From Candidatus Harrisonbacteria bacterium (GTDB taxonomy: Bacteria; Patescibacteriota; Minisyncoccia; UBA6257; 02-FULL-45-10c): a DNA stretch of 64,000 nt. Position 1 is the stretch's first letter. Each line of letters starts with the position of its first letter. Location of the stretch: NCBI GenBank assembly GCA_016192685.1, contig JACPTS010000001.1, forward strand, positions 161,710-225,709. The letters are read 5' to 3'. Shown here one piece after another: positions 54,703-59,261 of the stretch. The position numbers and the translations under genes are program-made. A model generated the notes under the pieces. It was not told the origin of the DNA and did no database searches. It was given only the letters and a program-made list of their open reading frames with translations.

Positions 54703-54797
54703 CGCTTTGAATTATTTTCAAGCTTTCCTGACCTCAAATTAACACTAAAAAAAGAGCAGGTCAATCAGGGTGCCTAGAGGGAATCACAAATAATTTG

Positions 54798-54869
54798 GGA
54801 GGCATACCGGATTCGAACCGGTGCAAACGCTGCCACAGAGCGTTGTGCTGCCGCTACACCAATGCCTCC
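54798..54869 (-). tRNA. tRNA-His (GTG) with encoded G-1
   Basis: Manual fold: G-1, acceptor GAGGCAT/ATGCCTC, C73, anticodon stem ACGCT/AGCGT with loop CTGTGGC, T-arm ACCGG-TTCGAAT-CCGGT. Confidence 0.8.
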
Positions 54870-54898: not shown

Positions 54899-55384
54899 TT
54901 ATTTATAAAGAATTAACCTTCTTGCATAGCCATGATCAACTTTTAATTTCTTGCCAATCTTCCTATAGGATAAACCCCGCCCTCTTAAAAATTTACAAGC
55001 TTTTATCTTTTTCTGCAAACATAATTTATTTTTAAATTGATTAGATACTATTTTTGCGACTATTGGAATAGTTTTTCGCGCAATACCTTTTTTAACTATT
55101 AAATAAGGGTAAATACTTTTAAGAAAAAATAGAACGTCTTTTTGGCGCGCGATGCAATATACCCAATTTTCTTTCCAATGAGGTTTTCTTTTTTTGGCCT
55201 TACAAATATTGCCCATCCCGGAAAAATCTTGAATTTCTTTTAAAACTCCCTCGTGGGTTTGGGGAATTGCAATACGATAATCATTTTTACCGTTTTTCAC
55301 TATATTTCCTTCCCCGTCTACAAATCCAGCTATATAACCCCAATTGATATTCATAATCCCAAGAATAACATATTCTGGTGACAA
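54899..55384 (-). CDS. free-standing LAGLIDADG homing endonuclease
   Basis: WGYIAGFVDGEGN (LAGLIDADG motif), 161 aa, basic C-terminus. Confidence 0.7.
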   Translation of the reverse strand: MSPEYVILGIMNINWGYIAGFVDGEGNIVKNGKNDYRIAIPQTHEGVLKEIQDFSGMGNICKAKKRKPHWKENWVYCIARQKDVLFFLKSIYPYLIVKKGIARKTIPIVAKIVSNQFKNKLCLQKKIKACKFLRGRGLSYRKIGKKLKVDHGYARRLILYK

Positions 55385-55551
55385 ATACTATATACCACTT
55401 ATAATTAAAATCACCAAAATATTAACTTTAATTTATCTTTACTTAAAGATTCAAAGAAAGTCTAGAAAACAAAAAGCCCCGCTAGGATGCGGGGCCACCT
55501 TAAGCAGGAGCTTAAGGATTTGATTGGAGAGGAGTTGTAGGACTGGCCGTC

Positions 55552-55884
55552 CTACGCAGGCACGACGATGAGCATCTTGGGCCGATCCGGAATGGCTTTG
55601 AAAAAGCCGTTCCCCCGGAGATCCACCCCGTAATGCCGTGCGATCTTTCCGAGCACGCGCCGGCTGATCCGCTTCGGAAAGCGGTTCCGGATCTCGGCCA
55701 TCACCCACTGCTCGGCGGTCATCTCGCCGTAGTGATAGTAGAGCTCCTTGACCGATGGCATCGCCGGCAGGCCCAGCCGCTGAATCAGCGGCGCGAGCGG
55801 CACGAGCGGCTCCTCCGTGATCTTCCGGCTCTTGTTCAGCCGGAAGATGTCCAACAGCGACAGCGCGGCATTCTTGAGGTTCAT
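55552..55884 (-). CDS. hypothetical protein in a compositionally foreign (about 60% GC) segment, possibly a mobile-element remnant
   Basis: 110-aa ORF; GC content far above its surroundings; followed by GC-rich terminator hairpins at 55465..55484 and 55514..55532. Confidence 0.35.
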   Translation of the reverse strand: MNLKNAALSLLDIFRLNKSRKITEEPLVPLAPLIQRLGLPAMPSVKELYYHYGEMTAEQWVMAEIRNRFPKRISRRVLGKIARHYGVDLRGNGFFKAIPDRPKMLIVVPA

Positions 55885-55968
55885 GGCTCCACCTCTGCTT
55901 TATTTAGGTACATAAGCTTTTCAGCTTACAAAATAAGTATAGCATACTTTAAAGCTTTTGTCAATAGT

Positions 55969-55990
55969 GCCTGGGCGGTGAATCCGCTTC
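55969..55990 (-). repeat. partial direct duplicate of the tRNA-Phe 3' end (acceptor/T-arm remnant), adjacent to a degenerate copy of the intron 3' hairpin
   Basis: tgcctgggcggtgaatc is identical to 56164..56180; the hairpin cgagcacataaagcattatgtgctcg (about 56050) resembles the intron hairpin ccgagcatataaattttatatgctcgg. Confidence 0.6.
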
Positions 55991-56163
55991 GCTAGAACAC
56001 TCGCCCTTCGGGCTCTTTGGAACCCAGCGGTTCCAACCCGAGCACATAAAGCATTATGTGCTCGGTGCCTCCGCCACGAGAAAACTCCCGTTTTCCCGAC
56101 CCCTTTCCCGTGTTCGATTCACCGCAAAAATTTAAAAACGGCATTCGCCGTTTTTAAATTTTG

Positions 56164-56464
56164 TGCCTGGGCGGTGAATCGAACACCGGACGCCAGCCTC
56201 TTCCAAGGCTAACTTGGACTATATCATCACCGAGCATATAAATTTTATATGCTCGGGCTAGGCGCTTCGTCCCGCAATGCGGGACTACTCCCCGAAAGGA
56301 TAGTCTCTACACCTTCAACGATTACAAAATCGAAGCTTGGCTCGGGATTCCCAAATAAAAATGTCATTTGACCTTCCCCGAATTCACCTAGTTTTTCAAC
56401 CCCGCTTACGCGGGGAAGCCCCAAAGAATTTGAGGGCTGCGCTCTACCACTGAGCTACCCAGGC
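56164..56464 (-). tRNA. tRNA-Phe (GAA) interrupted by a group I intron between positions 33 and 34 (5' exon 56464..56433, 3' exon 56203..56164)
   Basis: Exons fold into a cloverleaf: acceptor GCCTGGG/CCCAGGC, D-arm GCTC-AGTGGTA-GAGC, anticodon stem CAGCC/GGCTG, loop CT|GAAGA, T-arm CGGTG-TTCGATT-CACCG, A73. Confidence 0.7.
56204..56432 (-). mobile_element. group I intron (229 nt, no ORF) in the tRNA-Phe anticodon loop
   Basis: P1: exon GCCCU pairs with intron GGGGC, with U.G at the splice site. P10: intron UCUUU pairs with the 3' exon GAAGA. P7 elements AGAGACUA (R) and GAUAUAGUCC (S). Terminal G before the 3' exon. Confidence 0.7.
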
Positions 56465-58838: not shown

Positions 58839-58912
58839 GCGGGTATCGTATAGTGGCAATACAACAGGTTTCCAACCTGTGGCCGGGGGTTCGATTCCCC
58901 CTACCCGCTCCA
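58839..58912 (+). tRNA. tRNA-Gly (TCC), CCA encoded
   Basis: Acceptor GCGGGTA/TACCCGC; anticodon stem ACAGG/CCTGT with loop TTTCCAA; T-arm GGGGG-TTCGATT-CCCCC; flanked by GC-rich processing hairpins. Confidence 0.85.
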
Positions 58913-59018: not shown

Positions 59019-59261
59019 ATGTATTTTGTATATATTTTAAAAAGTATAAATTTTCCGAATCAAACATATACAGGTTCTTCTTCTAATTTAAAAAATAGAT
59101 TGCAATCGCATAACGATGGCGCCAACAAACACACCAGCAAATTCAAACCTTGGAAATTGATTTGGTTTTGCGCCTTTCCCACAAAACAGAAAGCTGAAGT
59201 ATTTGAAAAATATCTTAAAACTGCTTCTGGTATTGCCTTTAAAAGAAAAAGATTGATATAG
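59019..59261 (+). CDS. stand-alone GIY-YIG nuclease domain protein (YhbQ/UPF0213-like)
   Basis: YFVYILKS...YTGSSSNLKNRLQSHN; about 80 aa. Confidence 0.7.
   Translation: MYFVYILKSINFPNQTYTGSSSNLKNRLQSHNDGANKHTSKFKPWKLIWFCAFPTKQKAEVFEKYLKTASGIAFKRKRLI

Follow-up and report, generated by a model that had tools for sequence, protein, structure and literature searches.

A group I intron splits the anticodon loop of a tRNA-Phe(GAA) gene in Candidatus Harrisonbacteria

We analysed a stretch of 64,000 nucleotides (nt) from a Candidatus Harrisonbacteria bacterium (assembly GCA_016192685.1, contig JACPTS010000001.1, positions 161,710 to 225,709), referred to below as the window. The minus strand at 56164..56464 of the window carries a transfer RNA (tRNA) gene, tRNA-Phe(GAA), whose anticodon loop is split after U33 by a group I intron of 229 nt. 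This is very likely the genuine and probably the only tRNA-Phe(GAA) gene of the organism, with a ribozyme between U33 and G34 that would be spliced out to leave a normal tRNA-Phe. Three lines of evidence carry this result: a full-length match of the intron to the Rfam group I model at 73.3 bits, a class I cloverleaf formed by the joined exons, and covariation among 37 homologous introns.

Exons, junctions and identity of the tRNA

The locus is composed of two exons and the intron, which lacks an open reading frame (ORF):

56433..56464, minus strand: 5′ exon, 32 nt, GCCUGGGUAGCUCAGUGGUAGAGCGCAGCCCU; tRNA nt 1-33, comprising the acceptor strand, the D arm, the 5′ strand of the anticodon stem, C32 and U33
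56204..56432, minus strand: group I intron, 229 nt, no ORF, with the terminal guanosine (omegaG) at 56204; full-length match to RF00028
56164..56203, minus strand: 3′ exon, 40 nt, GAAGAGGCUGGCGUCCGGUGUUCGAUUCACCGCCCAGGCA; G34 A35 A36 G37 through A73, CCA not encoded

When the exons are joined, ARAGORN folds them into the cloverleaf of a class I, 73-nt tRNA-Phe(GAA) with a variable loop of 5 nt and the discriminator base A73. The mature anticodon loop reads CU-GAA-GA, so that position 37 is a G. The spliced product differs by a single base from the intronless tRNA-Phe(GAA) of locus L254 (71/72 identical; loci fetched for comparison are cited by L numbers), and other intronless tRNA-Phe genes score 88-94% by a global alignment that is lowered by extra 3′ bases in the ARAGORN calls. 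A 25-nt stretch of the 5′ exon is furthermore present in at least 77 intronless tRNA-Phe genes from metagenomes. In its default mode ARAGORN reports tRNA-His, tRNA-Arg, tRNA-Pro and tRNA-Gly genes in the window and misses this tRNA-Phe; it finds no other tRNA-Phe there.

Fold and covariation of the intron

The intron matches the Rfam model RF00028 (Intron_gpI) over model positions 1-253 with 73.3 bits (gathering score 50) and an E-value of 1e-16 for the whole window, and this is the sole Rfam match in the window other than tRNAs. The intron also has both core blocks, GUAGAGACUA at 56310..56301 and GAUAUAGUCC at 56225..56216. To this we added alignment A1, comprising 37 distinct Phe introns at position 33/34, each with 10 and 13 flanking exon bases, onto which the following helices of the window copy were projected:

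56418..56437, minus strand: P1, exon GCCCU (56437..56433) with the guide GGGGC (56422..56418) and a U33.G wobble at the 5′ splice site; two pairs change on both sides where the exon differs
56423..56427, minus strand: P10 guide UCUUU, pairing with the 3′ exon GAAGA, G34-A38 (56203..56199); 100% of cells pair
56400..56415, minus strand: P2 hairpin CCCCGC-GUAA-GCGGGG; 6/6 pairs change on both sides and 98% of cells pair
56258..56391, minus strand: long-range P3, CUAGGUG (56391..56385) with CGCCUAG (56264..56258), enclosing P4-P6, the 5′ strand of P7, P7.1 and P7.2; seven pairs, 100% paired, three compensatory
56316..56381, minus strand: P4 (56381..56376 with 56347..56342), P5 hairpin (56371..56351) and P6 hairpin (56335..56316)
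56217..56305, minus strand: P7 pseudoknot, the guanosine-binding helix of the R and S elements, GACUA (56305..56301) with UAGUC (56221..56217); invariant, paired in 37/37
56269..56300, minus strand: P7.1/P7.2 module between P7 and the 3′ strand of P3, with P7.1 UCCU-UUCG-GGGA (56300..56289), a GUA linker and P7.2 GUCCCGC-AUU-GCGGGAC (56285..56269)
56230..56256, minus strand: P8 hairpin of 11 base pairs, CCGAGCAUAUA / UAUAUGCUCGG, from the Rfam alignment; 89% of cells pair in its three basal pairs, of which two are compensatory

Over the 37 introns, 97.0% of the cells of the 49 counted pairs can pair, compared with 36-56% when the partners are slid by 1-3 columns. Compensatory changes on both sides were found for 23 of the 49 pairs, and none of 500 shuffles reached the observed values. 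P4 is nearly invariant and 100% paired, all seven counted P6 pairs covary, P5 was taken from the Rfam alignment, and P7 lies within the most conserved blocks of that alignment. OmegaG occurs in 37/37 homologs, as does the U-1.G pair at the 5′ splice site.

The P10 pair at tRNA nt 37 is C-G in the 35 introns with a GAAGA exon and U-A in the two with a GAAAA exon (L060 and L114), a covariation in favour of the 3′ splice site as placed here and of G37 as a real feature. The intron contains no ORF with a nuclease domain, and only spurious ORFs of 59 and 40 amino acids (aa) overlap it. A conserved P9 hairpin was not found among the homologs, and the CAAG/CUUG candidate for it in the window is not conserved. 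To judge from these features the intron copy is apparently intact, with no sign of decay seen, and almost certainly functional.

Most of what a preliminary description of this locus had proposed is upheld by these results. It had read 56164-56464 as a tRNA-Phe(GAA) interrupted by a group I intron of 229 nt following U33, with a class I body once the intron is removed, the P1 pairing GCCCU/GGGGC with its U.G, the P10 pairing UCUUU/GAAGA, R and S elements, a terminal G before the 3′ exon, G37 rather than A37 and no homing-endonuclease ORF in the intron, and it had named the Rfam covariance model as a check. Its assignment of the host to the Candidate Phyla Radiation (CPR) was likewise correct, as a LAGLIDADG ORF downstream of the gene is identical to HYY86_01090 of Ca. 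Harrisonbacteria.

Predicted splicing and alternative explanations

The gene would be transcribed as a single precursor, in which the intron would fold into a standard core of P3-P8 and P4-P6 domains with the guanosine pocket in P7 and the added P7.1 and P7.2, while nt 39-43 of the tRNA, the 3′ side of the anticodon stem, are probably held by its 3′ tail. Splicing would begin with the attack of an external guanosine after U33, and the freed 3′-OH of U33 would attack after omegaG (56204), thereby joining the exons into the loop CU-GAA-GA.

The sequence identity of the locus, the integrity of the core, the homology, the covariation and the variable presence of the intron are established; catalysis and the status of the gene as the sole tRNA-Phe are inferences. 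Several points weigh against this interpretation. Transcription and splicing are read from sequence, and a consensus scan, at its threshold, called no sigma-70-like promoter upstream of the tRNA-Phe. The search for a second tRNA-Phe gene covered the 64-kb window of a 608-kb contig. The aligned introns were chosen by conserved patterns and 32 of the 37 share one exon context, so that many covariation cells are not independent, and P4 and P7 are uninformative on covariation because they are invariant in the alignment. Finally, P6 of the window copy contains two U.U mismatches; all other counted core pairs form.

It is improbable that the intron is genuine and removed in vivo but depends for efficient folding and splicing on a protein, either from the host or encoded nearby, such as a LAGLIDADG maturase. 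The intron is small and has no P9 hairpin, a LAGLIDADG gene is located 780 nt away, and some LAGLIDADG proteins act as maturases of organellar introns. However, the homologs of this gene are tied to tRNA-His at loci without the intron (7/7 contexts), and the intron itself occurs in L175 and many other loci without an adjacent LAGLIDADG gene and beside a broken one in L122. [quoted passage not shown]

A decaying pseudogene with an inactive intron, in a cell supplied by an intronless tRNA-Phe encoded elsewhere, is a still slighter prospect. The partial view of the genome, the two P6 mismatches and the missing promoter call would fit such a pseudogene, but the invariant core positions, U-1.G, omegaG, P1, P10, P3, P4, P7 and P8 are all intact, and an intronless gene that looks functional matches the exons at 71/72 positions. 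Moreover, the Patescibacteria genomes in a published table have one tRNA-Phe each, and it is rare for a single genome to contain both a split and an uninterrupted copy for one anticodon (PMC13011429).

That the gene is instead a tRNA-Leu(CAA) with its intron one nucleotide further 3′, after C34, has a negligible probability: ARAGORN in intron mode (-i) slides the junction by 1 nt and reports Leu(CAA) with an intron at 34/35, and an intron shifted in this way would still end in G (56203), but a C and not a U would then precede the 5′ splice site, the U.G pair would be lost along with the registers of P1 and P10, all conserved in 37/37 homologs, and the class I tRNA with its 5-nt variable loop and a body 71/72 identical to an intronless tRNA-Phe(GAA) does not resemble bacterial tRNA-Leu, which is class II. 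Because only the placement U33|...G56204|G34 yields both a U before the 5′ splice site and an in-register P10, we rejected the Leu(CAA) call. Similar boundary shifts are documented for ARAGORN and tFind in two earlier reports (Williams, bioRxiv 10.1101/2020.01.27.920355; Nakagawa et al. 2026, PMC13011429). Conversely, the 'Phe' calls by ARAGORN in Alphaproteobacteria (L018, L077, L085, L098 and L106) were discarded as misplaced Leu(UAA) introns under the U-1/omegaG rule.

Peripheral architecture and a helix between the intron tail and the 3′ exon

The two-hairpin fold of P7.1 and P7.2 was found in 17/17 distinct introns that carry the module, despite differing sequences; these are nine Phe introns together with Asn/Asp-type introns of Patescibacteria. 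An alternative, which we call type B, is present in 26 distinct Phe introns, the majority, including that of Doudnabacteria, and consists of a single covarying stem of 5 base pairs with a conserved 17-nt loop (UGAGUCCCAACAAUAAY). The presence of P7.1 and P7.2 between P7 and the 3′ strand of P3 is reportedly a criterion for subgroup IA in the classification of Michel and Westhof. The tRNA introns of Patescibacteria have been assigned to subgroup IA and none was classed as IC (Nakagawa et al. 2026, PMC13011429), and the module in the window agrees with that assignment for the phylum.

In a crude neighbour-joining tree (182 shared columns, module masked, exon bases included, without support values), the Phe introns group together with both architectures mixed, adjoin the Asn/Asp introns and are remote from those of the Leu, Ile, Arg and Met tRNAs. 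This topology fits, without proving, an exchange of the module or a repeated change within one lineage of Phe introns.

The tail of the intron offers a further pairing, a predicted helix that places the 3′ splice site in its loop:

56194..56211, minus strand: tail-exon helix, intron UAGCC (56211..56207), three bases upstream of omegaG, with GGCUG (56198..56194), the 3′ strand of the anticodon stem, nt 39-43

An unbroken run of five pairs is possible in 28 of the 37 introns, and at least four pairs in 31. Among the hosts with GGCUG, tail variation (U/C at one end, C/U at the other) preserves pairing, and hosts with differing stems have matching tails (AUGCU:GGCAU in L099, GACGC:GCGUC in Doudnabacteria). 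The helix is absent in L055, L060 and L114, the last two of which have a P9 hairpin instead. Taken one by one, the per-sequence shuffles give weak values (P about 0.05-0.1), and only a few of the compensatory events are independent. The tail-exon helix may represent a conserved alternative to the P9 hairpin; a limited search of published accounts of bacterial tRNA introns found no mention of it. Because P1 takes up nt 29-33, P10 nt 34-38 and the tail helix nt 39-43, the intron would hold the entire anticodon arm, so that the exons would have to be ligated before the normal anticodon stem could form.

Distribution of the intron and the origin of G37

The preliminary description had expected a Phe intron at 33/34 to be unusual in a CPR genome, an expectation that was not borne out. 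One is already published from Doudnabacteria (PMC13011429), and a scan of a genome collection with the core pattern CCGAGCCAAGC...GAAGGTGTAGAGACTA returned at least 120 matches. Among the matches listed, most are Leu(UAA) introns of Proteobacteria and Acidobacteria, and Phe(GAA) 33/34 introns are found in Ca. Taylorbacteria (L055), Ca. Ryanbacteria (L039) and the metagenome-assembled genomes (MAGs) L060, L099 and L114, at least two of these three being Patescibacteria. At least 40 further Phe 33/34 introns were identified in Patescibacteria genomes and metagenomes.

A metagenome scan with 25 nt of the 5′ exon also gave at least 120 matches, and the counts that follow describe the matches listed, as samples and not totals. 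At least 77 alleles are intronless, 49 of them with G37 and 28 with A37. At least 31 complete introns of 203-283 nt were found, all with G37 and none with an ORF, and at least six further intron-bearing contigs end at the 3′ side, giving at least 37 in all. About one third of the sampled alleles with this 5′ exon therefore contain the intron, which suggests that the tRNA-Phe 33/34 intron is frequent in Patescibacteria.

In most bacterial tRNA-Phe the anticodon is followed by A37, which is usually hypermodified. G37 occurs in 52 of the 79 intronless tRNA-Phe genes of the fetched loci, which are mostly Patescibacteria-like and include the syntenic L257 and L254. Because intronless genes have it too, G37 is a lineage trait and neither a consequence of the intron nor a defect. 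To judge from other tRNAs with G37, it would be methylated to 1-methylguanosine (m1G).

The LAGLIDADG gene and other neighbours

The region 3′ of the tRNA-Phe gene contains the following features:

55967..56125, minus strand: element of ~160 nt, just 3′ of tRNA-Phe and its terminator hairpin
55936..55964, minus strand: promoter of the GC-rich ORF cassette (TTGACA-17-TATACT, near-consensus sigma-70), whose further signals are a conserved hairpin in the 5′ untranslated region, a GGTGGAG ribosome-binding site and a terminator at 55475..55496
55552..55884, minus strand: GC-rich ORF, 110 aa, 59-64% GC (62-64% in the window) in DNA of 40-49% GC (about 40% in the window)
54899..55384, minus strand: LAGLIDADG ORF, ~780 nt downstream of tRNA-Phe; Pfam LAGLIDADG_1 at 24.1 bits against a cutoff of 23.1; 100% identical to HYY86_01090
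54797..54868, minus strand: tRNA-His(GUG), 30 nt beyond the LAGLIDADG ORF

The LAGLIDADG ORF is free-standing, contains a single motif and has 19 homologs besides the exact match. The preliminary description had noted such a gene near the intron and thereby implied a link; the gene is present, but the link does not stand. In 7/7 contexts fetched for five homologs of 59-85% identity, the LAGLIDADG gene ends 3-12 nt upstream of a tRNA-His(GUG) on the same strand; in L257 the gap is 10 nt. No intron-bearing tRNA-Phe is located beside it in these seven contexts, L246 having an intronless tRNA-Phe 2.3 kb away. For this reason, we rejected the gene as the homing endonuclease or maturase of the intron; it may encode a homing endonuclease that has the tRNA-His locus as its niche. 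The LAGLIDADG gene of L122 is a broken one, in two ORFs. In one relative, a gene for a large serine recombinase with Resolvase and Recombinase domains (L247:1128-2702) overlaps the 3′ end of a LAGLIDADG-linked tRNA-His on the opposite strand, a hint that integration takes place at the tRNA-His locus.

The ~160-nt element begins with GCGGUGAAUCGAACACGGG, the reverse complement of the tRNA T arm with one mismatch, and ends with GATTCACCGCCCAGGCAC (55984..55967), an exact 18-nt copy of the 3′ end of tRNA-Phe (56180..56163) that runs from the middle of the T loop to the base after the discriminator. Its predicted fold is multi-branched, with the two ends of the element pairing to close it, and has a minimum free energy of -77.6 kcal/mol (z=-6.1). 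Homologous copies are located after tRNA-Phe (L175:6313-6474 and L257:207-360) and after tRNA-Val(UAC) (L188:3974-4119 and L199:2776-2954). The terminal repeat matches the adjacent tRNA exactly in the window and in L199 (18 nt) and nearly in L188, and mismatches it in L257 and L175. The element is sporadic, being present in only 3 of the ~115 tRNA-Phe loci examined.

Rfam searches gave no match for it, either at E<=1 in the window or at the gathering score in L175 and L257. ARAGORN called no transfer-messenger RNA in it, a pattern scan of viral contigs gave no match, and no integrase lies beside the copies in L188 and L199. Islands that integrases insert into tRNA genes carry as their signature a regenerated tRNA end together with a displaced fragment, as described in the Islander report (PMC4383910). 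Because the copied tRNA end resembles that signature, our leading guess is a miniature, non-autonomous integrative element; it could also be a new structured RNA.

The GC-rich ORF, in a self-contained cassette, comes after the element both in the window and in L257. This ORF has ~12 homologs of 52-65% identity, which are always GC-rich and always near tRNA genes, at varying positions (L252-L257). It has no significant Pfam match (the best, HTH_26 with E=0.11, is below the cutoff) and no PHROGs match. The small ORF adjoining the LAGLIDADG gene corresponds to HYY86_01095, of the MAG that also encodes HYY86_01090. Outside this region, a stand-alone GIY-YIG ORF of 80 aa (59019..59261, plus strand; Pfam E=3e-18) adjoins tRNA-Gly(UCC) at 58839..58912 and is the third nuclease-type or selfish-looking gene in a tRNA-rich 5-kb stretch.

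Gain and loss of the intron among relatives

Four related loci were compared for gene order:

Window, intron present: tRNA-Phe, terminator, ~160-nt element, promoter, GC-rich ORF, LAGLIDADG, tRNA-His
L257, intron absent: as in the window
L254, intron absent: tRNA-Pro, tRNA-Arg, tRNA-Phe, SppA-like gene, GC-rich ORF, tRNA-His
L122, intron present: tRNA-Phe, followed directly by the broken LAGLIDADG gene, tRNA-His

In L122 (1-1285), the intron-bearing tRNA-Phe, the LAGLIDADG remnant and tRNA-His are located within 800 nt, and relative to it 55385..56162 of the window, comprising the element and the GC-rich ORF cassette, is an insertion of ~780 nt. Because the intron is present in some and absent from others of these fairly close relatives, it was gained or lost among them. 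The route could be precise loss by way of a spliced copy, reverse splicing, or recombination with an allele that contains the intron. The intron lacks a homing endonuclease, and its absence from syntenic and near-identical alleles points to an old element, passed on mostly by vertical descent, with occasional loss or gain.

The Logan contigs L241-L245, short-read assemblies of this organism which carry the SppA-like gene of the window, break in or beside the tRNA-Phe locus. One ends exactly at the exon/intron junction (56433) and two inside the downstream element, at ~56080. These breaks are consistent with repeats or allele mixtures.

Taking these observations together, we tentatively consider a wider reading that seems to us rather less probable than otherwise. 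The intron would hold the whole anticodon arm with the tail helix replacing P9, and the Phe introns of Patescibacteria would form their own clade with a distinctive presentation of the 3′ splice site, having exchanged P7.1/P7.2 with Asn/Asp introns of the phylum. Separately, the locus would be a hot spot for small selfish DNA, and the ~160-nt element could be a new tRNA-targeting non-autonomous element or a new structured RNA.

Implications for annotation

What is probably the sole tRNA-Phe gene of the organism is easily missed by ARAGORN in its default mode or mislabelled as Leu(CAA) in its intron mode, and missing the split gene would wrongly imply that Phe codons are not decoded. The Harrisonbacteria intron adds an example to a class known from one complete genome. 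With two architectures and presence or absence in syntenic relatives, these introns are a natural system for the gain and loss of endonuclease-free introns in reduced genomes. Knowledge of the group I intron mechanism is unchanged, and the value of the finding is chiefly in annotation and in comparative studies of gain and loss.

Comparison with known introns

One survey raised the number of interrupted bacterial tRNA classes from four to 21 (Williams, bioRxiv 10.1101/2020.01.27.920355). Among 95 complete Patescibacteria genomes, Nakagawa et al. 2026 (mSystems, PMC13011429) found one Phe(GAA) 33/34 intron, in the Doudnabacteria genome GCA_016699995.1 (Table 1 and supplement), and most tRNA introns in their study lack endonuclease genes.

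The classical introns in Leu(UAA) at 34/35, in Ile(CAU) and Arg(CCU) at 36/37 and in fMet(CAU) at 33/34 (IC3; Azoarcus, Anabaena) share with the window the location in the anticodon loop, a size of ~200-250 nt, the lack of an ORF and the exact core strings CCGAGCCAAGC...GAAGGUGUAGAGACUA. They differ in having no P7.1/P7.2 between P7 and the 3′ strand of P3 (ACTA-GACGG...), interrupt other tRNAs in other phyla and are distant in the crude tree.

A resemblance that we take only as a lead is that of the P7/P7.1/P7.2/J7.2-3 region of the window to what we presume to be the IA motif of phage T4 td-type introns, GACUA-UCCC-UUU-GGGGA-GUA-(hairpin)-GAAACG. The td-type intron of T4 interrupts a protein-coding gene and carries an ORF. 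BLAST found no similarity to T4-like phages, its sole phage match being 49 nt in Agrobacterium phage Atu_ph07, and pattern scans of viral contigs for the Phe-intron junction found nothing. A full-length Rfam group I match of 74.9 bits was also seen in a MAG labelled Methanosarcinaceae archaeon (L042:1549-1783, JAIPUR010000020.1), around which ARAGORN called no split tRNA; this could reflect mis-binning or a genuine archaeal group I intron.

The Asn(GUU) and Asp(GUC) introns at 35/36 in Patescibacteria (subgroup IA) resemble that of the window in the P7.1-GUA-P7.2-GAAGCGCC module, in the P4-P6/P7 core sequence (L120, L057, L050 and others) and in phylum. They differ in insertion site (35/36 and not 33/34), in host tRNA and in the presence of a P9 hairpin. 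In the Patescibacteria MAGs L019, L066, L075 and L115, the 5′ part of Asn-type introns, upstream of P2, is entered by ORFs that have HNH-like Cys/His motifs; these ORFs agree with the HNH endonuclease genes reported in tRNA-Asn introns (PMC13011429).

The closest described counterpart, and a clear homolog, is the Phe intron of Doudnabacteria GCA_016699995.1. Both interrupt the same tRNA at the same CU|GAAGA site, with G37, U-1 and omegaG, the same logic of P1 and P10 and no ORF; they have the core blocks AAUCCCGAGCCAAGC, GAAGGUGUAGAGACUA and GAUGAUAUAGUCCAA in common, and in both the intron tail can pair with the anticodon stem on its 3′ strand. In contrast, the Doudnabacteria intron is 211 nt long and that of the window 229 nt, its type B single hairpin takes the place of P7.1 and P7.2, and the sequences of P2, P5, P6 and P8 differ, as does the host class (Doudnabacteria and Harrisonbacteria, respectively). 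The kind of feature described here is thus already published, and the window provides a further member from a different class of the phylum.

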